Shown here piece by piece: positions 2,950 to 21,033 of a stretch of 64,000 nucleotides of DNA (within the stretch, counting starts at the first letter, position 1; the number at the start of each line of letters is the position of its first letter). Made by a program: the position numbers and the translations under genes. The notes below the pieces were generated by a model. The model had not been told where the DNA came from. It made no database searches and saw only the letters and a program-made list of their open reading frames with translations. Source of the stretch: Mobula hypostoma (Eukaryota); contig NC_086097.1 in NCBI RefSeq assembly GCF_963921235.1, forward strand, positions 119,166,001 through 119,230,000. Direction: 5' to 3'.

Positions 2950-3550
2950 TGTAAGTTGAAGCATCGCTTCATCAGGCACCTCTGTACCATCCATCACAAG
3001 CAGGACTTCCCAATGGCCAAACATTTTAATTCCCATTCCCATTCCCATTCCCATTCTGATGTGTCATTCTACGGCCTCTTGTGCCTACATGAGGACATTC
3101 TCAGGGTGGAGGAGCAACAGCTTATATTCTGTCTGTGTCGCCTCCAACCTGATGGCATGAATATAAATTTCTCCTTCTGGTAAACAAATATCCTCCCCGA
3201 CTTTCTCTATCCCCACTCTGACCTTTTACCTCTTCTCACCTCCATATTACTTCCCCCTGGATTCCCTCCTTCTTCTCTTTCTCTATGGTCCATTCTCCTC
3301 TTCAATCAGATTCCTTCTTCTCCAGCCCATGACCTTTCCCACCCACTTGGCTTCACCTTTCATCTAGCCTCCTTCCCCTCCACCCACCTTTTTATTCTGG
3401 CATTTTACTGCCTTCCTTCTCAATACTGAAGAAGGGTCTCAAGCCAGAATGTTGGCTATCCATAGATGCTGCCTGACCTGCTGAGTTCCTCCAGCATTTT
3501 GTGTGTGTTTATTGCTCTGGATTTCCAGTATCTGCAGATTTCTCATGTTT
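2950..3550 (+). mobile_element. Penelope-like element 3' fragment (GIY-YIG C-terminus plus pLTR)
   Basis: Peptide HRFIRHL..QDFPMAKHFNSHSHSHSD..RVEEQQLIFCL..LQPDGMNINFS, a pyrimidine-rich tract, and the gatgctgcctgacctgctgagttcctccagc terminus. Confidence 0.88.
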
Positions 3551-3754
3551 ATAATTTACAAGGCTATTATCATTCCGATTCATTCTGTTTGGTTTTCAAA
3601 GTCACAGCATTTTGTTTACATAAATATTTCCTTCTCAGCTTGATTCTTGACAGCAAATGGGACTGGTCTGAACTGCCAATAGACTGGCTTGTTATTAGAT
3701 TTGTTGCTCATAGGTACTTTGAAACTTGCTCTGCAAGATAGACTTCAAACACAT

Positions 3755-4255
3755 ATTCAGTAGCCACTTTAATAGGTACACCTTTACAGTCACACGTTAA
3801 TGTAAATATCTAATCAGCCAATCATGTGGCAGCAACTCAATGCATTAAAACCTGCAGACATGGTCAAGAGGTTCAGTTGTTGTTCAGACCAAATCTCAGA
3901 AAAGGGAAGAAATATAACTCTGACCGTGGAACAATTGTTGGTGCCATATGGGGTGATTTGAGTATCTCAGAAACTGATGATCTCCTTTTGATGTACAACA
4001 CTCTCTACAGTTTCCAGAGAATGGAAATTGTAGACAATTTGCGAGAAACAAAAAACATCCAGCGAGTGGCAGTTGTTTGGGTGAAAACGCCCTGTTAATG
4101 AAAGAGGTCAGAGAAGAGTGGCCAGACTAATTCAAGCTGACAAGAAGGCGACAGTAATTCAAGCAACCACCTGCTACAACACCGGTGTACAGGAGAGCAT
4201 CCTTGAATGCACAACACTTCAGACATTCAAATAGATGGGCTACAGCAGCAGATAA
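3755..4255 (+). mobile_element. Tc1-derived MITE (cagtggccactttattaggtacac TIR family)
   Basis: TIR-like cagtagccactttaataggtacac; the body matches the other copies in the window. Confidence 0.8.
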
Positions 4256-4396
4256 AAATGAAGCAGCACCAATGCAGACATTGATATAGCTAGGAAGAGT
4301 TGGGGAATGATACTGGTGTAGGTTTGGAACATGGACTATTCCATGTGGCCAAAAAAAAAAGGCAGGCATAGCTGGGACCCATGACTACACTTTTTG

Positions 4397-4485
4397 ATAG
4401 ATGTTACCTGGCCTGCTGAGTTCCTCCAGCATTTTTCTGCATGTTTCTTGAATTCCCAGCATCAGTAGATAGATTTTCTCGAGTG
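4397..4485 (+). mobile_element. Penelope pLTR terminal fragment
   Basis: tagatgttacctggcctgctgagttcctccagcattt...ttcccagcatc. Confidence 0.7.
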
Positions 4486-5387
4486 TAAAAACTTAGGTGG
4501 TTAGATTTAAACAATACCTGGAATTTAAGATAATCTCAGGAGGCATTATGATCCACACCATGGTTCAGCTAGCAGAAACTAAGCCACACTTAAAATCAAA
4601 GGCAACTGCTCCAAACTGCAGGTTCTGAAGTTGATTTCTGAGTGTGGGGGGCAATAGTTCAGGTGTGGATAGATGGAATAATGTAGAATAAAGCTTAGCA
4701 TCCATTGAGCAGGCCAAAGAGCTTGTTGCTGTGTTGTAGTACTCCATGAAACCAAGTTCAAAGAATACTGCTAAGACTATTTCAGCCCAATGATAACGTT
4801 GAAATGACCATCACTGAATACAATATTTTCAGTTTAAAACATCAAAGTGTTTCAACTGATGAAAAAGAGGTCACATTTTAATAGACTACAGATCTAAGAT
4901 TAAGACAAGAACAAAAATACATCAATAGCAATTCAAAGTGAAAACATAAAGGAAGGAAGTTCCTTGAAAGCTCATTCTAACACGAAGAAACTGGATTGTA
5001 TATCTATGCCACAACTCATAATGACAGCAAACACAGACTTCCAAGAGCTGATTTACAAACCTTTTACTCATATGTGAATCATCAGGCCTTCTTGATCATT
5101 GGTCAAGGCATGTACTTTTGCAAGTTCAGTCAGATATCTTCGACAGAAAGTTTTGTCACATTGAAAATCTATTCTGGTGTAGCTCTACAGTTATTAAGGC
5201 AGATAGAATCCACAGTAGAACACAATGGACAGCAGAGGTAGTAAATACCATCGCACCAAACTATGAAAAATGAACAAATTTGATGGGGAAGGGCTGCAGA
5301 GGAACATAAGCTAGACTAGAAGTTGCATCAATGAAGCTTCAAAGTGACACATTGACATATTTTTTGAAAGATATCTTCTGTACATGA

Positions 5388-5855
5388 TGAAGTGGCCACT
5401 GAGTGTGTTTGTGATCTTCTCGTGCTGTAGGCCATCCACTTTAAGGTTCAAAATTTTACGCATCCAGTGATGATCTTCTGTACTCCACTGTCGTCATGTG
5501 TGGTTACTTGAGTTACTGTCACCTTCCTACCACCTTGAACCAGTCTGGCCATTCTACTCTGACCTTTCACATTGACAACTTTCACCCACAGAACTGCTGC
5601 ACTTTATTTTTCACATGATTTTCACACCATTCTCTGTAAACTCAAGAAAATGTCATGCAAGAAAATCCAGGAGATCAGCAGTTTCTGAGATACTCAAACC
5701 ACCTCACCTGGCACAAAAAATCACCCTCCACAGTTATAATGATAGCATAGTCACATTTCTTCCCCATTCTGAAGTTTGGTCTGAACAACAGCCAAACATC
5801 TTGACAGTGTCTGCATGCTTTTATCCTTTGAGTTACTGCAACATGATCGGTTAAT
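5388..5855 (-). mobile_element. Tc1-derived MITE
   Basis: aagtggccactgagtgtg end; reverse complement of the family body. Confidence 0.8.
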
Positions 5856-5971
5856 TTTTAAATAGTGTTTGAGCTGTGGCTATTCACACGGTCAGGTGTC
5901 TAAAGAGAGTAGAGTAGTGGACATAGCATGCATTCCTGAGGTGTGCCAGTGTTGGCTGTCAGTGAGGAGTC

Positions 5972-8305
5972 CATATGACCATAAGACATAGAAGTAGAAT
6001 TAGGCCATTTTGCCTATCGAGTCTGCTGCATCATTTAATCATGGCTGATCCTTTTCTCTCCCTCCTCAGCCCCACTCCCCGGCCTTCTCCCCCCCACCCC
6101 TGTAACCTTTGATGCCATCTCCAATCAAGAACATATCAAGCTCTGCCTTAAATACACCCAACAACCTGGCCTCCACAGTTGCCTGTGGTAATAAATTACA
6201 CAAATTCATGACCCTCTGGCTAAAGTAATTTTTCTGCATATCTATTTTAAATGGAGGCCCCTCTATCCTGAGGCTGTGCTCCCTTGTCCTAGACTCCCTC
6301 ACCATGGGAAAGATCCTTTCAACATTCAAAGGGTTTCAATGAGATTCCCCCAAACCCAGAGCTATCAAGTGTTTCACGTTTAATAACCGTTTCATTCCCA
6401 GAAACAGCCTTGTGAACCTCCTCTGGACCCTCTTCAATGCCAGCACACCTTTTCTTAGATGAGGAGCACAAAACTGTTCACAATACTCAAGGTGAGGCCT
6501 CACCAGTGCCTTATAATGGCTCAGCATCACATCTCTGCTCTTATATTCTAGACCTCTTGAAGTGAATGCTGGCATTACATTTACCTTCCTCGCCACTGAC
6601 TGGACCTGCAAGTTAACTTTTAGCATGTTCTGCACAAGGTCTCTGAAGTCCTTTTACATCTCCGATTTTTGGATTTTCTTCCCATTTGGAAAGTAGTCTG
6701 CACATTTATTTATTCTATGAAAGTGCATGACCATGGATTTTTTAACATTGCATTTCATTTCCCACTTTCTTGCCCATTATCTGAATCTGCCCAAGTCTTT
6801 CTGCAGCCTACCTGTTTCCTCAACACCACCTGCCCTTCTACCAATCTTCATATCATCTGCAAAATTGGCAAAAAATCCATCCATTTCATCATCTAAATCA
6901 TCGATATACAATATAAAAAGAAGTGGTCCCAATACCAACACCTACGGAACACCACTAGTCACTGGCAGCCAACTGGACAAGGATCCTTTTATTCCCACTT
7001 GCTGCCTCCTACCAATAAGCCAATTCTCCAACCATGTTAGTAACTTTCCTGTAATACCATGGGCTCTTAACTTAGTAAGGGGCCTCATGTGGCACCTTGT
7101 CAAAGGTCTTCTGAAAGTCCAAATATACAACATCTACTGCATCCCCTTTATCTATCCTACTTGTAATCTCCTCAAAGAATTCCAACAGATTCGTCAGGCA
7201 AGATTTTCCCTTAAGGAGACCATGCTGACTTTGTCCTATCTTGTTCTGTGTCACCAAGTGACATAACAATTGACTCCAATATCTTCCCAACCACTGAGGT
7301 CAGGTTAACTGGTCTTTAACTTTATTTCTGCTGTCTTCCTCATTTCTTAATGAGTGGAGTGACATATGCAAGTTTCCAGTCCTCTGGCACCATGCTAGAG
7401 TCCAACAATATTTGAAAGATCATTACTAATGCCCCCAGAATTTCTACCACTACTTCTTTCAGAACTCTAGGGTGCAGCTCATCTGATCCAGGTGACTTAT
7501 TGCCCTTAGGTCTTTCAGATTTTTGAGCACCTTCTCTCTTGTAATAATAACTGAACTTACTTCCCTTCCCTCATGCACTACAACATCTGACACACTGCTA
7601 GTGTCTTCCACAGTGAAGGATGATGCAAGATACTCATTTAGTTCATCTGCCATCTTCTTGTCCCCTGTTATTATTTCTTCAGCCTCATTTTCTAGTGGTC
7701 CTATATCTTTTCTTATCTCTTGTTTATTTTTTACATACAAACGTTTGTACTTGAAAAAGCTTTTACTGTCCATTTCTCCCAGTTACTGTTGGGAGGTCTG
7801 TATAAAACTGCCATCAAGGCCCTTTTACCCTTGCAGCTTCTTAACTCGACCCAGAAGGATTCAACATCTTCCAAATCTATGTCACATCTTTCTACGGAAT
7901 TGATGCCATTCTTTTGCAGACGAGCTACCCCATCTCTCTGCCTACTTTCCCTTCACTTCGATACAACGTGTAACCTTGGATATTCAGCTCCCAACTGCAA
8001 CCATCCTTCAGCCACGATTCAGTGATGGCCACAACATCACACCTGATAATTTATAATAGTGCAACAAGATCATCCTCCTTATTTCTTATACTCTGTGTAT
8101 CGAGATATATAGCACTTTGAGTACTGCATTTGCTACCCCTTTTGACACTGCATCCCTTATGCACTGATACTCACCCTGGTGGCTGCAATTTTGTCCTACC
8201 TGCCCTTCCTGACAGTCTGACTGCATGCTATCTCGGCATTTTTAACACCTGTCCTATCCTGAGTTTCTTTACTCTGCTTCCCACCCTCCTGCCAAGTTAG
8301 TTTTA
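5972..8305 (-). mobile_element. CR1-clade LINE, decayed ORF2 with internal deletions
   Basis: Minus-strand ORFs QHGLLKGKSCLTNLLEFFE, VYLDFQKTFDKVPH, VTSGVP, RPHLEYCEQF; ccataagacatagaag 3' tail at the left end. Confidence 0.93.
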
Positions 8306-8814
8306 ATTAGGAGGAGATGTTACTTCTGATCTGTGGTCTCCTGATAAGGAAGTCAAGGATCCAGCTGCAGAGGCAGGTAGCAAGCTATGTTTGCATAATA
8401 TATTGTTTTATATAGTTCTCGAGCTTGTTCAAACAGTATAATGCTACAGTTATGAGCAGTCTTTCCATGCCCTTTATATTCAGCAGTGACAGAGTAAAGC
8501 ATAGTTTACAAGCAAGTCTAGTGAGAGGTCAACACTACTGTTCCATGCCACTGTGACTTATTGCTCAATACCTTCTCATTCGTATGATTACGGTCTTAAA
8601 CAAAAAAAGATCATAAGCAAATATTTCTAACATAACACCGGGGAAGTAAAATGGTTTTGATGCTACTATCTCACCTAAATCTTGCCGAACATGATTTACT
8701 GAAGTGTTTCAATACTGTCAAAGGAAAATGGCCATTCCCATATAGCATCTTCACAAAAGCATCCAAAAAGATTGAAATTTATTTACAAAGCAGTAAACTA
8801 TTTATAGGTTGAAC

Positions 8815-9147
8815 CTTTAAGCAGTTGATGCAAATTGAATATCTCGTTATGTGTATGGCAATTTTACTTTGTTGAAAACAAGCACATCTATGACTCTCTT
8901 GTCTAATAGGATCAAATACATGAACACTTAGACAGGTATAGACAGAACAATTGTGCATGCTAAAAAATGCTTTGCCTTTCTTTCCCCTTATATTCAGATT
9001 AATACTTAGCATTAAAAAAAAAACTTTTACCTCTGCTTTTGTGGAAAACTCCATGTCCTCACTGGTAAGGATAGCTTGCTTATTCTTTATTTGATCCTTT
9101 GATTGTCGGTTTATGAGTATCACAATGAGGTCCATTATTAGAAAACA
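8815..9147. repeat. Copy A of a diverged ~330-bp local direct duplication
   Basis: Aligns colinearly with 9698-10070 through shared anchors ctttaagcagttgat, caattttac, aataggatca, taaggatagctt, attctttatttgatccttt and ttattagaaa. Confidence 0.8.
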
Positions 9148-9149
9148 TA

Positions 9150-9690
9150 CACAGTACCTAATACAGTGGCCACTGAGCCTACGTTCATAGTCTTCTACTG
9201 CTGTAGGTCATCCACTTCAAGATTCAACGTGTTGTGCATTCAGACATGTTCTTCTGCATGTCGATATTGTAACACACGGTTATTTAATTTACTGTCGCCT
9301 TTCTGTCAGCTTGAACCAGTCTGGCCATTCTCCTCTGAGATCTCTCACTAACTACTTTTCCCCACGGAACTGCCAGCACTGGATTTTTTTTTTACGTTTT
9401 GCACCATTCTCTGTAAACTCAAGAGATTGCTGTGCATGAAAATCTCAAGAGATCAGCAGTTTCTGAGATACTCAATCCACCTCATCTGGCACCGACATTC
9501 ATTCCACGGTCAAAGTCACATAGATCACATTTCTTCCCCATTGTGACGTTTGATCTCAGCAACAACTAATCCTCTTGACCATGTTACATGCTTTTATGAA
9601 TGCATTTGCTGCCATGTGATTGGCTGATTGGATATTTGCATTAACAAACAGGTGTACAGTTGTACCTAATAAAGGGTCTACTGAGTATAT
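9150..9690 (-). mobile_element. Tc1-derived MITE
   Basis: gtacctaatacagtggccactgag ... tgtacctaataaagggtctactgagtata. Confidence 0.85.
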
Positions 9691-9697
9691 TTTGAGT

Positions 9698-9795
9698 CTT
9701 TAAGCAGTTGATAAAAATGGAATCTTCCGAACAGTGTATGTCAATTTTACATTGCTAAAAGCAAGGACATCATATGATTCTCCTGCCCAATAGGA

Positions 9796-9863
<68 letters not shown>

Positions 9864-10070
9864 TCAGATAGGTACAGAGAGAATCACATTTTGCAAGCTA
9901 AAAGATGCAGTGCCTTTTCCCTTATATTTAGATCAGTCCTTTACTTTAGAAAACATTGAAATCTTCATTTTTGGAAAAATTCCACATAAGGATAGCTTCC
10001 TTAATTCTTTATTTGATCCTTTAGTTTTAGGCATATGAGATTCACAATTATGTCTTTTATTAGAAACTAT
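9698..10070. repeat. Copy B of the local duplication, containing a (CA)n(TA)n microsatellite at ~9797-9861
   Basis: See 8815-9147. The compound microsatellite is present only in this copy. Confidence 0.8.
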
Positions 10071-10974
10071 ATTCCTTACAAAGGATGATATTAATGATTT
10101 CAAATTCCATCAGATCTACTCAGTATCTTCTGAAAAATTTCCATATAATATCAAATGAGCTAAAATACCTCCAAATCTATTTTCAGACAGGCCAACTTAC
10201 ATTTCTTTGCAATTAGGAAGATAAATAAATGCTTTTTTCATATTCTAAGCATAAATTCAATATAATTTTAACAGGGCCTCTTGCATTTGCATTCTATTGC
10301 ACAGGAAATTAATCCCAGAAACATGTCTGTCTAGTTTTCTGACCTTATGCTGTTAGTTTCAGTACTGCCAAGACTTTGGTAAAAGAGCAGCAGAAAACAT
10401 ATTAAAATGATGTAAAATGTGTTGAACAGGAGATCAGGAATCCTTCAGGAAATTCAAATGCCATTTTTGGCTATAAATCTAGAAATTACAATGAATCAAA
10501 TTAACATAAACAGTTTAATGTTTGTCAAAATAAAGAGAAGAATTTGATAAATGGATATAAAATATTCAGACGTCAGTAATGCTCAGAGTAATTTTCAGGC
10601 TGTAATCTAAGAAACTGATTATTCATTAAAAATATGCACATTTTGATTACAAAGGAAAGCTGCTGATATATCTTGCAAATGGAACATAATGAAATCAATC
10701 ATATTTTATTCAAGTCAGTGAGCTGCTCAAGTTGCTCATAATGAGTAAAGTATTAATAAACCAGAAGGTTTGAGTCCACCTTATAAGGATAATTCCATGG
10801 ATATTTTTGGGCATTATGTCCAGGGAAAAACAAGCAGTTTCAGGGGTCTCTGTCCATTCAACTGAACTACAGAGTTACTCAACTTGGACAACCCAATCTT
10901 AGGACAAAGGAGCAAGAGATCATCAGGATTTAGTTTAATCCTTGACAACTTTTGAACCAAACGTATTTGATACA

Positions 10975-11232
10975 TAGTGGTTCGCGAGCGCCTTACAGTA
11001 CTAGCGACCCGGGATCAATTTCCACCGCTGCCTATAACGGGTTTGCACATTCTCCCTGTGATCACATGGGTTTCCTCCCTTAGCCTAAGGATGTAGCCAT
11101 TGGTAGATTACTTGGTCATTGCACATTGTCCGGTCATTAGGCTAGGGTTAAACTGAGGGTTGTTGCGTGGCGCAACTCAAAGGGCTGGAATGGCCTACTC
11201 CACGCTATATCTCAATAAATAAAATAAATAAC
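10975..11232 (+). mobile_element. tRNA-derived SINE (HE1/V-SINE-like)
   Basis: B-box-like gggatcaatttcc, V-domain-like gtttgcacattctccctgtg..tgggtttcctcc, CR1-like tail ggaatggcctactc followed by (AAAT)n. Confidence 0.75.
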
Positions 11233-11546
11233 TAAAGAAATACTTCTGAAAAATTCAGCAATAAGATGCTGAGCCATCTGCAACCCAAAGGACTGCATTG
11301 GGTCAGAGAGCAAAACTAAATGATAATGATAACGGTGCTGGACTTATTTAGACAGTGGCCTTTGATGACACTTCACACATGTTTTATTGACAATAAAACA
11401 AATAATGGATATCACCTGTAAAATGCTGTTAAGAAAAAGAAGCCACCATAAAGTTAACTCATAGAAACAATAGACCACTGGATACTATTCGTGTTTTCAG
11501 AACTTCATGCAAAAAATAAGTGTCAGGTAGAAGCATATAAAGGACA

Positions 11547-11745
11547 CAAACACCAGGAAATCTACAGATGCTGGAAATTCAAGCAACATACATAAAAACT
11601 GCTGGTGAACGCAGCAGGCCAGGCAGCATCCATAGAAAGAAGCACAGTCGACGTTTCGGGCCAAGACGCTCCGTCAGGACTAACTGAAAGAAGAGATAGT
11701 AAGAGATTTGAAAGTGGGAGGGAGAGGGAGATCCAAAATGATAGG
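11547..11745 (-). mobile_element. Penelope pLTR fragment with a degenerate hammerhead
   Basis: Near-identical to 17381-17580; minus strand reads agtc-ctgacgg-...-gaaacgtc-gact. Confidence 0.85.
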
Positions 11746-11877
11746 CAGATTCTCTGACTCTGAATTCCACCTCTTGGTTATTCTGTAGTTTTTATTTTAG
11801 CATTTCTTCTTACTCTACTTCAAGCTGAACTACTGTCTTTGTGTCAGTCCATTTTTAACTCATTGCTGTATTTATTA

Positions 11878-12470
11878 TTAGAATCAAAATCTGATTCATT
11901 ATCACCGAAACATGTCGTGAAATGTCTTGTGCCAAGGCAGCGGTACAGTGTAATACATAAAATATGCTATAAATTACCAGGAATACATATATAAATTCCT
12001 GAAGAACTTATGCATGTTATTATATACATACATAAATGTACTTATGTATTATATAAAGGATTCCTGAAGAAGAGTCTCAGCCCAAAACATCGACTGTTTA
12101 TGCATTTCAGTAAATGTTGCCTGACCTGCTGAGTTCCTCCAGCATTTTGGGTGTGTCTTGAATTTCCAGCATCTGCAGAATTTTTCATGTTTCTAAATTC
12201 CTTATGTTGATATATATATCGTGTAAAAAAGAGAACAAAATAGTGATATAGTGTTCATGGGTTCAGGGAACGTTAAGAAATCTAATGGAGAAGGGACAGA
12301 AGCTGTTCCAAATATGTTAAGTGTGTATTTTCAGCATCTGGAACCTCCTCACTGATGGCAGTAATGAGAAGAGGGCATGTCTGTTGTTGGTGGAGTCCTT
12401 AATAAAGTGCCTTCTTGAGGTATGTCTTTTTGAAGATGTTCTCAACGTTGAGGAGGCTAGTGCCCATAAG
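11878..12470 (-). mobile_element. Rex1/Babar-like LINE 3' fragment interrupted by a + strand Penelope pLTR piece (12062-12192)
   Basis: agaatcaaaatctgattcattatcac tail; ctcctcactgatggcagtaatgagaagagggcatg is the typical Rex 3' ORF end. Confidence 0.6.
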
Positions 12471-12505
12471 GGCTTCTCGTCTAAGCAGGTGAAGAATTTT
12501 AAAAT

Positions 12506-12775
12506 TACACTCAGTGGCTACTTTATTAGATACACCTGTATACCTGCTTGTAAATACAAATATCTAATCAGCCAATCACATGGAATGATTGTGGGTGCCA
12601 GATGGGGTGGTTTGACTATCTCAGAAACAACTGATCTCCTAGAATTTTTATACAGAAGTATCTATCACTTACAGAGAATGGTGTGAGAACAAAAACAAAA
12701 GTGAATAGCAGTTCTGTGGGCAAAAACACCTTGTTAATGAGCAAGGTCAGAGGAGAATGGCCAGACTGGTTCTTA
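12506..12775 (+). mobile_element. Tc1-derived MITE, partial
   Basis: tacactcagtggctactttattagatacacctgta TIR. Confidence 0.8.
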
Positions 12776-13799
12776 TGATGACTCCGATCACTTTTCACTA
12801 AAATCAATTTTTTATTTGCTCTAATTGTTTTTCATGTGAATGCTGCTTATGTAATACTATGCACCCATAATGTTGTTGTAAGTATGATTTTCATTGTACT
12901 TGTGCGTATGTGTACTTGTGTGCATGACAATAAACTTACCTTTGACTTTGACTTTACATCCTTTCCTGTAGGTTCTCGTGTTGCTTGGGCTTGCCCATAT
13001 GTTAGATTCACATTTTGCAAGTTATTTATCCGCAGTTTCCTATTCTTTAAAAAACTGATGATTTATAGTTGAAAGTAATTACTCCAAATTGGAAAAGAGC
13101 AGAGTAGAGTTAAAGGAGGGTAGTTAATTCAAGTTTTGAGATCAAGGTCATTGGGTTCACTCAGTATTGGGACCCAGGTTTCATTTATTTCGGTGGCCAC
13201 TTTATTAGGCATCTCTGCAGTAGCCTTCCAGTCAAATCACTCTGACACTCTGTATTGACAAGTGGCTTGTGGAATGATCCTTTAGATCATCAGCCAGACA
13301 CCCAGTTCTGTTCCCATTTTTGACAGTAGGGCCCTCATCACTAGTGCTTCCAGAATCTATTCAGTTAGGGAAAGCTCCCTTTATCCTCCCTTGAACGCGG
13401 GCATTGTTGGGGGAACAACATGTGCGCCTTCTGTGGAGCAACCTACCTCCAATGTATGAAATCCCCACTGCATCTGAGAAACTTCACCTTCAGGTAGAGA
13501 GGAGCAGCTTTCTATCTGGCAAGCTCTCTTCAGTCCCTTTCTCCAGTACCATACCTCAGCTCACTCTCTCTATCCTCCTCCACACTCTATCAGCTCCACC
13601 TGCATAGGAGGCTCGAGTGGATTACAGCACAGCAATTTTTTGGATCGGACTCTGTGGGTGCAGCTTGGACTCCCTACCAAACCTACTTCTCACCCTTTCA
13701 CAGGGAAACCTGTATTATTAAAATTATCGTTCACCACTAAATCAACTCTGCTGCTCTGCTTTTGGGTCAAGCCTCCTCTAAGTTCGCTGACACAAGATA

Positions 13800-15364
13800 C
13801 AGGTTTCCCCCACCATCCGAAGGTAGAGCGTTCCTATGAAACTGTTCGTAAGCCAAAATGTCGTAAAGCGAAGAAGCAATTACCATTTATTTATAAGGGA
13901 AAATTTTGTGAGCGTTTACAGACCCAAAAATTACTGACCAAATCATGCCAAATAACACATAAAACCTAACACAACAGTAACACGTAGTAAAAGCAGGAAT
14001 GATATGATAAATACACAGCCTATATAAAGTAGAAATACTTTTCCACAATCATTACTGAACTGTTCGCCGAAGCGAAAATCTCACGCAAGTGCTGTTGGCA
14101 GAAAATCTCACGCAAGCGCTGTTGGCAAGAACACTCTCTCCAGTAACCTTTAAGCTATGAAGCTGCCAAATCATACCAAATAACACGTAAAAATACACAG
14201 CCGATATAAAGTAGAAATAATGTATGTACAGTGTAGTATCACTTACGGGAATCGGGAAGACAGCGCCGAGCACACTGATGATGGTGTGTTAGACTTGTCG
14301 GAGTTTGGGTGGTGCAGTGGCCCCCACCCTCCGGGCCGCTGAGCGATACATTGCCACGAAGAACGCAGGGGTTCAGCGGTAGCCAGGAGGAACACAGCAC
14401 ATCTTTAAGAAAAAAGCCGAAACAAACATACTAATTAATTAGGTGCCGCCCGTAATTGTCGGCCCAGATCAGTGCCGATTTCCGATTGTGTCGTCTCTGA
14501 TCTGGGCCGACAATTACGTGTCGGCGGCACCTAATTAGTTAGCACGTTTATTTGGGTTTTTTTCTTAAAGATGTGCTGTGTGCCTCCCGGCTACCTTCGC
14601 ATTCTCCGCGAATCGGTATCTGCCCGTGGCCTGGGGGTTGGGGTGGTGGGACACTAGGGTGTCATCTCGTCATCTGTTTCCATTAGGGCAGGCAGCTCAT
14701 CTTCTTCTATCTGTGCCCGCTTCGATGTCGAAGGTCGAGGTTCGTCATCTGCTGTGGCTGATGTGGAAGGCTTGCTTGACTGCTGAGCCTCGCGCATTTT
14801 TCTATCACACAGTTCTTTAATAAGGACTCAAACCATCCTGAAAATATCCCCTAAACCGACGTACCCTTTCAAAATTAAAGTCGTACTTTACCATTACTCA
14901 TTCGGTTTCCATTGTTATCCTTTTTTCTTCCAATTGCATCAGCTCTTCATCTGTCAGTTCTTGGTGATGGGATGCCAAAACCTCTTCAACATCATGTTCG
15001 TCAGCTTCCACAAGCCAAACTCACTTTGTCCTTACTTTGTTCACCACGATCAAAACGCTTAATTATGTCTAGTTTTACGGTAAGTGTAACACCCTTACGA
15101 GCTCTTTCAGGCTTTTCCGATACCATTGAACTCATCTTGCAAACGGCTGCTCACAGGCACGTGTTAAAGCAAAGCAGTTCCGAATCCGGGGGAGAGCGGC
15201 TGCTCGGGGCGCGTTGTCTTTTATCGCGCGCTGATTTTTTACCGCACGCTGTTTTTTTTTCGTAATAGTGAAAACACCTTCTGAAAGCGAAAACGGTACT
15301 AATGTAGTTCTTTCGTAACAGTGAGGTTTTGTAAAGCGAACGTTCGAAAAGCGGGGGACACCTG
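13800..15364 (-). mobile_element. Tigger/pogo-type DNA transposon, internal-deletion derivative
   Basis: TA|caggtttcccc ... gggggacacctg|TA termini. The minus strand encodes MSSMVSEKPERARKGVTLTVKLDIIKRFDRGE joined to an acidic C-terminal remnant (DVEEVLASHHQELTDEELMQLEE). Confidence 0.88.
14315..14645. mobile_element. Palindromic hAT-like MITE embedded in the Tigger element
   Basis: Long arms acacagcacatctttaagaaaaaagccg..taattaggtgccgcc..cggcccagatcag / ctgatctgggccgac..ggcggcacctaatta..ttcttaaagatgtgctgtgt; cagtggccccca.. and ..ggggttgggg ends. Confidence 0.65.
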
Positions 15365-16920: not shown

Positions 16921-17008
16921 ATCCTTGAAACGCCATTTGAAGTAAGGTTTGAGTGGGAAAAACGGGATGAATCCACTCTGGAAAATAATGCATCAAGATT
17001 GACTGTCT

Positions 17009-17058
17009 TAACTCCATCATGGATGGTCGCAAGTTCGGCTGCGAAGGGAGGAGATTTA
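17009..17058 (+). ncRNA. Degenerate twister-ribozyme-like motif
   Basis: t|aactcc-atcatggat-ggtcgcaagttcgg-ctgcgaag-ggaggag resembles the twister core UAACUCC..GGUCCCAAGCCCGG..GGAGGAG; P2 is ctcc/ggag. Confidence 0.6.
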
Positions 17059-17476
17059 GGAATTGGTCTAGCAACCCTATCTCATTAAAAACCCAGAGAA
17101 CTGCCAGCAGAGGCTCCAAGGAGCTCATCCTAGGTAGAGGAATAATCTTCACCTACAGGTCCAGGACAGTGTCACAATGTGCGCTGACAATACTGGAACC
17201 CAAGTGCAGTGGAAAGACAGACATTTATGCAGAGATGGTGATGAGAGTTTATTCATAATCATTCCTAAAGAACACCAGTAACTTGGATGAGCGACACCAT
17301 GAGAAGTAACATTCTCAAAACCAGGACCCTGCGATTAGCGATAATCAGGCATCCGCTTAAATAATACAAGTAATACGGAAACAACAGGAATTCTGCAGAT
17401 GCTGGAAATTCAAGCAACACACATAAAAGTTGCTGGTGAACGCAGCAGGCCAGGCAGCATCTCTAGGAAGAGGTGC

Positions 17477-17512
17477 AGTCGACGTTTCAGGCCGAGACCC
17501 TTCGTCAGGACT
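17477..17512 (-). ncRNA. Minimal type I hammerhead ribozyme (Penelope pLTR)
   Basis: Minus strand agtc-CTGACGA-agg-gtctcgg-cct-GAAAC-GTC-gact: core, helix I and helix II are intact. Confidence 0.85.
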
Positions 17513-17810
17513 AACTGAAGGAAGAGTGAGTAAGGGATTTGAAAGTTGGAGGGGGAGGGGGAGATCCAAAATGATAGGAGAAGACAGGAGGGGGAGGGAT
17601 AGAGCCGAGAGCTGGACAGGTGATAGGCAAAAGGGATACGAGAGGATCATGGGACAGGAGGTCTGGGAAGAAAGACAAGGAAGTGGTGGGGGGTCCCAGA
17701 GGATGGGCAAGGGGTATATTCAGAGGGACAGAGGGAGAAAAAGGAGAATGAGAGAAAGAATATGTGTATAAAAGTAAGTAACAGATGGGGTACGAGGGGG
17801 AGGTGGGGCA

Positions 17811-19309
17811 TTAGCGGAAGTTAGAGAAGTCGATGTTCATGCCATCAGGTTGGAGGCTACCCATACGGAATATAAGGTGTTGTTCCTCCAACCTGAGTGT
17901 GGCTTCATCTTTACAGTAGAGGAGGCCGTGGATAGACATATCAGAATGGGAGTGGGATGTGGAATTAAAATGTGTGGCCACTGGGAGATCCTGCTTTCTC
18001 TGGCGGACTGAGCGTAGATGTTCAGCAAAGCGGTCTCCCAGTCTGCATCAGGTCTTGCCAATATATAAAAGGCCACATCGGGAGGACCGGACGCAGTATA
18101 TCACACCAGTCGACTCACAGGTGAAGTGTTGCCTCACCTGGAAGGACTGTTTGGGGCCCTGAATGGTGGTAAGGGAGGAAGTGTAAGGGCATGTGTAGCA
18201 CTTGTTCTGCTTACACAGATAAGTGCCAGGAGGGAGATCAGTGGGGAGGGATGGGGGGGAACGAATGGACAAGGGAGTTGCGTGGGGAGCGATCCCTGCG
18301 GAATGCAGAGAGAGGGGGGAGGGAAAGATGTGCTTAGTGGTGGGATCCCGTTGGAGGTGGCGGAAGTTACGGAAAATAATATGTTGGACCCGGAGGCTGG
18401 TGGGGTGGTAGGTGAGGACCAGGGGGACCCTATTCCTAGTTGGGTGGCGGGAGGAAGGAGTGAGAGCAGATGTACGTGAAATGGGGGAGATGCGTTTAAG
18501 AGCAGAGTTGATAGTGGAGGAAGGGAAGCCCCTTTCTTTAAAAAAGGAAGACATCTCCCTCATCCTAGAATGAAAAGCCTCATCCTGAGAGCAGATGCGG
18601 CGGAGATGGAGGAATTGCGAGAAGGGGATGGCGTTTTTGCAAGAGATAGGATGAGAAGAGGAATAGTCCAGATAGCTGTGAGAGTCAGTAGGCTTATAGT
18701 AGGCATCAGTGGATAAGCTGTCTCCAGAGACAGAGACAGAAAGATCTAGAAAGGGGAGGGAGGTGTCGGAAATGGACCAGGTAACCTTGAGGGCAGGGTG
18801 AAAGCTGAAGGCAAAGTTAATAAAGTCAACGAGTTCTGCATGCGTGCAGGAAACAGCGTCAATGCAGTCGTCGATGTAGCGAAGGAAAAGTGGGGGACAG
18901 ATACCAGAATAGGCACGGAACATAGATTGTTCCACAAAGCCAACAAAAAGGCAGGCATAGCTAGGACCCATACGGGTGCCCATAGCTACACCTTTAGTTT
19001 GGAGGAAGTGGGAAGAGCCAAAGGAGAAATTATTAAGAGTAAGGACTAATTCCGCTAGACGGAGCAGAGTGGTGGTAGAGGGGAACTGATTAGGTCTGGT
19101 ATCCAAAAAGAAGCAGAGAGCTTTGAGATCTTCCTGATGGGGGATGGAAGTATATAGGGACTGGACATCCATGGTGAAAATAAAGCGGTGGGGGCCAGGG
19201 AACTTAAAATCATCGAAAAGTTTAAGAGCGTGAGAAGTGTCACGAACATAGGTTGGAAGGGATTGAACAAGGGGGGATAAAACCGTGTCGAGGTATGCAG
19301 AAACGAGTT
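17811..19309 (-). pseudogene. Penelope RT-GIY-YIG polyprotein, 5'-truncated and disrupted
   Basis: MDVQSLYTSIPH, GVAMGTRMGPSYA, RYIDD, Cys linker CKQNKCYTC, VIYCVRSSRCGLLYIGKT. There is a premature TGA at 18048-18050, and a pair of compensating frameshifts relative to the plus arm. Confidence 0.92.
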
Positions 19310-20216
19310 CCCCACCACCACCACCCCACCAGCCTCCGGGTCCAACATATTATTCTCCGTAACTTCCGCCACCTCCAACGGGATCCCACCACTAAGCACA
19401 TCTTTCCCTTCCCCCCTCTCTCTGCATTCCGCCGGGATCACTCCCTACGCAACTCCCTTGTCCATTTGTCCCCCCCATCCCTCCCCACTGATCTCCCTCC
19501 TGGTGCTTATCTGTGTAAGCGGAACAAGTGCTACACATGTCCTTACACTTTCTCCCTTACCACCATTCAGGGCCCCAAACAGTCCTTCCAGGTGAGGCAA
19601 CACTTCACCTGTGAGTCGGCTGGGGTGATATACTGCGTCCGGTTCTCCCGATGTGGCCTTTTATATATTGGCAAGACCTGACGCAGACTGGGAGACCACT
19701 TTGCTGAACATCTACGCTCTGTCCGCCAGAGAAAGCAGGATCTCCCAGTGGCCACACATTTTAATTCCACATCCCACTCCCATTCTGACAGGTCTATCCA
19801 CGGCCTCCTCTACTGTAAAGATGAAGCCACACTCAGGTTGGAGGAACAACACCTTATATTCCGTCTGGGTAGCCTCCAACCTGATGGCATGAACATCGAC
19901 TTCTCTAACTTCTGCTAATGCCCCACCTCCCCCTCGTACCCCATCTGTTACTTACTTTTATACACATATTCTTTCTCTCACTCTCCTTTTTCTCCCTCTG
20001 TCCCTCTGAATATACCCCTTGCCCATCCTCTGGGTCCCCCCCCCACCTCCTTGTCTTTCTTCCCGGACCTCCTGTACCATGATCCTCTCGTATCCCTTTT
20101 GCCTATCACCTGTCCAGCTCTTGGCTCTATCCCTCCCCCTCCTGTCTTCTCCTATCATTTTGGATCTCCCCCTCCCCCTCCCACTTTCAAATCTCTTACT
20201 CACTCTTCCTTCAGTT

Positions 20217-20252
20217 AGTCCTGATGAAGGGTCTCGGCCTGAAACGTCGACT
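20217..20252 (+). ncRNA. Minimal type I hammerhead ribozyme (Penelope pLTR)
   Basis: agtc-CTGATGA-agg-gtctcgg-cct-GAAAC-GTC-gact; predicted cleavage after C20248; helix III reduced to palindromic ACGT. Confidence 0.88.
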
Positions 20253-21033
20253 GCACCTCTTCCTAGAGATGCTGCCTGGCCTGCTGTGTTCACCAGCAAC
20301 TTTTATGTGTGTTGCAAGTAATACGGAATTCCTGAGCCAATCAAAATAAACATAGCAAACTTAAAGAGAAAGCACCAGAAGAATGCATTACAAAGACCGA
20401 GTCACTCAAGAAAAAACACAAGGAACTCTAAAGAATTAACATCTGTCATTAAGTAACAATTAACCATTTCAGGTACTCTAAAATCCTTGGAGTCCAATGC
20501 TCTCTGGCACCTCACACAAGCCCAAAGAACACATTACAGACAAAGGACTCTAGCAAGTTGCTGTGGGAGGCCTATGGCCCAGTAAAGGTGATGGAATTAA
20601 AGAAGTTAGTAATTGACTCTCTTGAGAATAAAAACCTGGAGACTGAGAGCTGCTGACTCAGACAGGACACTGTGGCTCATTGAGGATATTCCTGAGGTCT
20701 TCTTAGTTCTTAGTCCTCTCTGTCCGGCAGTCTACCAACTCTCTCCATTCGCATCTTCTCTTCTCTTCTCATCTCTCCCCGACAAAAGACCACAAAATCC
20801 CTGTTCCCAGACCCACAAGAAAGAACAACATCTCACTCATTGGATAGCACACATTCCAAAGCCCCGTTATCTCTAGCCATAACCCAAGCATCGCTGCTAC
20901 AGAGAAACCATTACCTTAGCAGTGAAATCGTACAGTGCGTTACATGTACGCACATGAGAAAAGTGCATAGGCGCTGTGTGTGAAAGTGTGGATGTTTAAA
21001 CATGAGTACTACTATGTGTTTTTGTTTACTGCA

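Follow-up and report, generated by a model that had tools for sequence, protein, structure and literature searches.

A twister ribozyme of the 'T-variant' type is located at the 5' end of the full-length element Perere-3, a member of the RTE clade in Schistosoma mansoni, and is active in vitro and in yeast (Liu et al. 2021, PMC8501958). Bipartite non-autonomous RTE long interspersed elements (LINEs) have also been described, including RTE-N1/N2_Lch, RTESINE1/2 and Bov-A, and a 5' ribozyme was already suggested as the reason why they keep their 5' end (Kojima 2018, PMC5786205). Ribozyme-headed short internally deleted elements (SIDEs) have been described as well (PMC3414825, PMC6765202), and active twisters have been obtained from fishes, amphibians, reptiles and a dolphin (PMC11662667). 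Here, we analyzed a retroelement copy in a 64,000-nt stretch of the Mobula hypostoma genome (hereafter the window; assembly GCF_963921235.1, contig NC_086097.1, positions 119,166,001 to 119,230,000 of the forward strand), in which position 1 is the first letter. We consider it probable that the outer 228 bp of this copy are a decayed and likely dead internally deleted RTE derivative, whose RNA was likely cut by a twister from read-through transcripts and likely copied by the reverse transcriptase (RT) of its parent. Twister-headed RTEs and ribozyme-headed internally deleted LINEs have each been published, and their combination, or a twister-RTE in cartilaginous fish, was not found in our literature searches, outside of which lie most subscription papers and Repbase.

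The family to which this copy belongs resembles Perere-3 in its core blocks (CUCC GC, GUCCCAAGC CCGG and GGAG GAGGG UUGG; PMC8501958 Table 1), in a target site duplication (TSD) that is flush with the AA of the cleavage site, with stem P1 supplied by the flank, and in an RTE parent with one endonuclease-RT (EN-RT) open reading frame (ORF) ~150 nt downstream and a short tandem tail (PMC8501958). Unlike in Perere-3, stem P3 is here a 3-nt loop, the outer pair of stem P4 is A-G, the copies are mostly ORF-less, bipartite and from an extinct family, and twister activity is predicted; the available parts of the Perere-3 account describe no internally deleted family (PMC8501958). Bipartite RTE LINEs are similarly composed of RTE 5' and 3' ends, with a length of 200-300 bp and no ORF (PMC5786205). 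However, the ribozymes cited for them are the hepatitis delta virus (HDV)-like ones of Ruminski et al. 2011 (PMC6765202), and twister is not named in the accessible portions of that work (PMC5786205). The R2 SIDEs of Drosophila also join a ribozyme head to the 3' end of their parent and are mobilized in trans, as is predicted here, but their ribozyme is HDV-like, their target 28S-specific and their copies few, whereas the present family is twister-headed and dispersed, with >1,000 copies (PMC3414825). What this analysis adds is a corrected LTR (long terminal repeat) insertion, a target-derived T before the AA, and a head that is 48/50 identical on distant RTEs while several closer relatives lack it.

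The locus consists of three layers: an outer RTE-derived copy, a solo LTR inside it, and a Penelope-like element inside the LTR (features are on the plus strand, except for the Penelope-like element, to which no strand is assigned). The outer element is enclosed by a 12-bp TSD, ATTGACTGTCTT at 16998-17009 and ATTGACTCTCTT at 20612-20623, with one mismatch; by chance, 11 of 12 matching letters would be expected within 50 nt of the tail with a probability of ~2.5e-4. Its 5' end is at 17010, with AACTCC as the first letters, and the last base of the left TSD, a T, occupies the -1 position of the twister site. The original prediction, made from the letters of the window, had placed these boundaries correctly, and it had also recognized the nested Penelope-like element at 17381-20314, whose 14-bp TSD is exact (17367-17380 and 20315-20328). 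It had, however, taken the remainder as a single ORF-less unit of ~650 bp. The middle 421 bp of that unit are instead an unrelated solo LTR with its own 5-bp TSD, and the real element totals 228 bp (17010-17169 plus 20544-20611).

All 39 non-self genome matches to query 16990-17380 begin at query position 172-189. In the 29 loci that were fetched, the match starts at element position 154-169 and extends no further than 592; in none of them is any of the first 150 nt aligned. Because these matches never cover the head of the element, the middle repeat is separate from it. This repeat begins with TG (17170-17380, the last 14 nt being the left Penelope TSD), ends with CA (20329-20538), and is flanked by GACAG at 17165-17169 and GACAA at 20539-20543. 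Among 22 copies with both ends, the 5-bp TSD is exact in six and matches at 4/5 positions in three more, and exact 4-bp or 6-bp duplications occur in none. Two LTR copies are found on the same strand, 3 kb apart, at locus L163, and sequence adjoining the LTR (before or after) is, by eye, common to L012, L014, L022 and L029. The middle insert is a solo LTR, with no superfamily assigned. That the ~650 bp moved as a whole might be suggested by the single 12-bp TSD around them, but this is effectively ruled out: the middle part is found without head or tail in 29/29 fetched loci, has 5-bp TSDs of its own, and splits the parent RTE 3' sequence in register.

By definition, a bipartite RTE LINE retains the two ends, 5' and 3', of an autonomous RTE and has lost the ORF, and this composition was found here. 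Among loci picked by their match to the 3' end are longer copies whose translation gives an RTE-type RT. A search with an endonuclease piece gave 33 candidates, and the same head lies upstream in 20/30 of the loci. Head and tail are 2.8-3.9 kb apart in seven of 20 extended loci, all seven of which end in TAAC, and in one long copy (L133) the AA directly adjoins a 15-bp TSD. The parent is ~3.2 kb long, with a majority frame of ~1,004 codons. Gastropods, fishes and lancelets have ~1,000-aa EN-RT-DUF6451 proteins that a 179-aa piece of the parent matches at up to 61%, and among six short fragments taken from decayed copies of the parent, Pfam detected RVT_1 in one, below its cut-off. Relative to the parent, the window copy corresponds to positions 1-151 and to the final 60-70 nt: 17010-17154 is parent 5' untranslated region (UTR; positions 1 to ~150), 17155-17169 begins the 3' part at parent position ~-70 and ends in the left TSD of the LTR, and 20544-20611 holds the ORF end and short 3' UTR (to 20598), followed by a decayed AAG/TAAG-type tail (20599-20611). 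The TSD length (12 bp in the window; 11-12 bp for 17 of the 26 TSDs that could be recovered) and the AAG, TAAG or TAAC tails fit RTE, for which the TSD mode is 10-12 bp (PMC6007223). The proposed non-autonomous RTE-derived family is supported by full-length RTE copies in the genome that match both head and tail, but its description as a SINE-like family (short interspersed elements) must be revised, since the head is parent 5' UTR. The outer element is an internally deleted LINE with a twister inherited from its autonomous parent, and not a SINE with a separately derived head. A classical SINE with a tRNA, 5S or 7SL head and RNA polymerase III transcription was also rejected, because no tRNA was found in 99 copies and no A/B boxes matched in the first 260 nt. 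One long copy (L117, G000:C36:137444402-137447707) has its head region tandemly repeated, in units of ~64 nt.

A head-only search of the genome returned 273 candidates, and a 25-nt head pattern (CpG decay and one mismatch allowed) returned 1,213 matches, with none for the reversed control. The latter number is a lower bound, as the pattern recovers only 5/29 loci picked by the 3' end although 22/29 have the head, and we estimate the true family size at roughly 5,000 copies (about 3,000-15,000). A sample of 99 copies was composed of 10 exact pattern matches and 89 of the first 100 listed of the 1,213. Short copies, with a median of 248 nt, make up 88 of the sample, and in the other 11 a 3' end is lacking within 650 nt; no copy was seen to continue into the ORF. 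The family is old. Measured at non-CpG sites, the median distance from the majority is 0.15 among 97 short copies; 11 long copies range over 0.10-0.17, and the window copy stands at 0.22. By this measure short and long copies are of equal age. In three other organisms, contigs cover the left flank, the head and the first part of the LTR; 12/578, 86/734 and 74/630 letters differ. The outer element and the LTR therefore both predate those splits, and the insertion and its LTR are shared with related organisms that are ~12% diverged. The twister-headed mini-LINE family is real and extinct, and its window copy is likely dead; the locus, a dead relic, exhibits no sign of a host function. Two pairs of loci (L002/L003 and L228/L229) have near-identical flanks and are probably segmental duplications.

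Presence of a twister at the head was assessed with the Rfam twister-P1 model and by comparison with the family majority. The model, applied to 62 of ~199,000 rough candidates in the genome, gave nine matches, all in this family, with scores of 39-47 bits (best: 46.9 bits, E 3.7e-6). The window copy itself has no twister match at E<=10, so that the motif at this locus is recognizable only through better-kept copies. As had been proposed, a twister core is present in the family consensus: the majority retains the complete core GGUCCCAAGCCCGG...GGAGGAGGG, stem P2, pseudoknots PK1 and PK2, three of four P4 pairs, A1, A2 and the general-base G, and a C-G pair closes the 3-nt loop that replaces P3. 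The full set of majority features is still present in 13 of the 99 copies, and the general-base G, whose position was not fixed by the search pattern, in 83. At 17010-17059, the window copy is a decayed type-P1 twister, representing only the 3' cleavage product and lacking a P3 stem. It differs from the majority at 10/50 positions; PK2 is broken at two of three pairs and PK1 is reduced to A-U and U-G, while A1, A2 and the general-base G are present. Twisters tolerate any -1 base (PMC8501958, PMC11662667), as well as defects in P1, P2 and P4, but not pseudoknot mismatches (PMC11662667). The twister of the family ancestor was thus plausibly active, and that of the window copy is likely dead through its broken PK2. 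The copy had been predicted to be inactive, and the degraded core agrees with this; the missing 5' P1 strand, which had also been blamed, is not the cause, as no copy encodes one. In contigs of two other organisms, a G is kept at some of positions 17054-17055 and 17067, indicating that part of the PK2 damage arose after insertion, in this lineage. Minimum-energy folds, which ignore pseudoknots, were not decisive, and L061 folded otherwise.

If twister cleavage defines the RNA, insertions are expected to start at the AA of the cleavage site. Loci were anchored on positions 51-140 only and read upstream, with a start scored as an AA with >=8/12 identities. The start is at the AA in 27/29 loci found by the head, in all seven anchored Rfam loci (of nine), and in 19 of 21 anchored loci among 29 found by the 3' end, which bears out the clustering of 5' ends that had been predicted. 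Columns -12 to -1 of the flanks show no conservation, and the 62 copies have no flank in common, which excludes a P1 strand carried upstream from a master. The AA is the common first position of short and long copies, abutting the TSD and with no shared upstream sequence. Of the 26 TSDs recovered among short copies, 16 are flush with the AA, nine are at 1-2 nt and one is at 7 nt. The base preceding the AA is T in 56/99 copies, compared with 30.5% in flanks (p=6e-8). To trace its origin, 24 TSDs from 87 copies were used (null rate 2/435). The T recurs in the 3' TSD copy in 12/14 cases, and a purine then follows in 16/18. The -1 T comes from the target and is not element-derived. Nor is it the RTE signature described in PMC6007223, which consists of the first TSD base and an upstream T-run rather than the last base. 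A preference for pyrimidine|purine at the second nick would be the simplest cause. Its effect is that the canonical U|AA is restored in over half of insertions.

Related RTEs were collected from metagenome contigs (80 loci), and the 56 that reach the ORF start were examined. The twister-core pattern matches 11 of the 56; by eye, one of these (L301) is no twister. L268 has a decayed twister. Rfam twister-P1 matches were obtained for 7/17 related loci scanned, at 37-54 bits. Among nine heads from different RTEs, 98.4% of cells pair, compared with 29-60% in slid controls, and both sides have changed at one P2 and one P4 pair. The same P3-less twister, 46-48/50 identical to the family head, is located at L283:374-423, L291:24-73, L257:1-50, L262:3235-3284 and L281:4-53, in RTEs with 43-70% protein identity to the parent (L262 not measured). 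The heads of L283 and L291 are 48/50 identical although the proteins are only 49% and 43% identical, respectively, while L254, the closest relative found (74% protein identity), L258, L260 and L255 have other 5' UTRs without such a head. In a FastTree tree of 39 proteins, for which no clade test was run, twister bearers are scattered, and module exchange or repeated loss both fit. We tentatively suggest, at somewhat less than even odds, that the P3-less 50-nt twister may be a portable 5' module exchanged by distant RTEs of aquatic animals, that here it may have spawned several promoter-less mini-LINE families with many insertions born self-cutting via U|AA, and that the 13 full-featured copies may still be active. 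The contig of L257 begins at the AA. More distant RTEs (L294, L296, L306, L324 and L327) have, 5' of the ORF, a twister of a second type, in which the P3 stem is long.

The following sequence of events would account for the family. A host transcript would read through a copy, and the twister would cut it at N|AA, leaving AA as the RNA 5' end; the -1 base and any P1 strand would be supplied by flanking DNA. The freed RNA would keep the 5' UTR hairpin and the 3' end recognized by the parent protein, and a few short masters would be mobilized in trans by target-primed reverse transcription, with the TSD flush to the AA. The solo LTR and then the Penelope-like element would later have split the outer copy. 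Several observations weigh against this account. None of the nine Rfam matches reaches the gathering cut-off of RF03160 (67.2 bits), a model that expects both P1 and P3, which the family heads lack. The A-G mismatch in the outer P4 pair is a majority feature. Among endonuclease-found loci, only 9/19 anchored (of 29) start at the AA, several being mutated or damaged there, and TSDs were recovered from only 26/88 short copies. P1 pairing in flanks is close to expectation (29/13/10/6/4 copies with 0-4 pairs, compared with 30.1/14.8/10.1/3.5/3.5 expected). Finally, the covariation rests on nine sequences and two independent changes, and relatedness alone can lift such counts above those of shuffles. 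Fixed 5' ends also arise from internal promoters in other LINEs, and with sub-threshold Rfam scores and a cleavage that is only predicted, the 5' end could mark a transcription start, with the twister fold as a passenger. We regard this as quite improbable. Copies begin precisely at the nucleotide that follows the scissile bond of the twister, there is no excess of a cap-type extra G before the AA (2/26 TSDs), neither a tRNA nor an A/B box is present, and the 50-nt fold is kept in RTEs that are 43-49% identical in protein. Moreover, the equivalent twisters of Perere-3 are able to cleave, both in vitro and in yeast (PMC8501958).

Of the 153 copies, 98 were alignable end to end, and their junctions recur in exact register, with retained lengths of 249, 252 and 288 nt in 21, 15 and 9 copies. 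The tails of the 88 short copies are AAG in 26, TAAG in 17, TAAC in four and unclassified in 41. Recurrent junctions and tails favor several short masters. To the points against must be added here that the junction classes have no private substitutions beyond CpG-type sites, that short homologies lie at or beside several junctions, and that the window junction (150/-70) is unique among the 98 and may be a one-off deletion. These same features, together with the equal age of short and long copies and the 55/98 copies, including the window junction type, that stand outside the shared named classes or alone, would be expected if each short copy arose anew when the RT jumped at microhomology from the 3' end to the 5' UTR of a full-length RNA, the twister still setting the 5' end. 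However, such independent origins appear unlikely to us, given that exact-register junctions recur so often, that AAG or TAAG tails, absent from 7/7 long copies, prevail among the classifiable short copies, and that short copies far outnumber endonuclease-bearing ones (1,213 matches and 33 candidates, both lower bounds from different searches).

If cleavage by the twister is true, short masters released in this way would extend the twister-RTE link, known from one flatworm, to a large animal genome and to other RTE lineages. About 250 nt, composed of the ribozyme, the 5' UTR hairpin and 60-110 nt of the 3' end, would then be enough for mobilization, which outlines a minimal RNA for the RTE protein. 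Among the many animal twisters without a known role, some would then likely derive from such elements.

The nested inserts have features of their own. In the nested LTR family, L163 and L022 are elements that have two LTRs and a related internal region; in L163, itself broken by Penelope pieces, no frame resembling pol was recognized. The Penelope-like element has inverted arms at 17414-18260 and 19469-20315 (847 nt, 97%). Between 18048 and 19349, its minus strand has an open frame of 433 codons with a weak RVT_1 match (E 4e-5) and a C-terminal motif that we take to be of the GIY-YIG type. The Rfam scan of the window did not match any hammerhead in the Penelope arms. Each arm nevertheless contains a minimal CUGANGA...GAAAC motif, presumably a hammerhead-type core, at 20221-20245 (plus strand) and 17484-17508 (minus strand). 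Counting these cores, two ribozyme classes are located within 3.6 kb.

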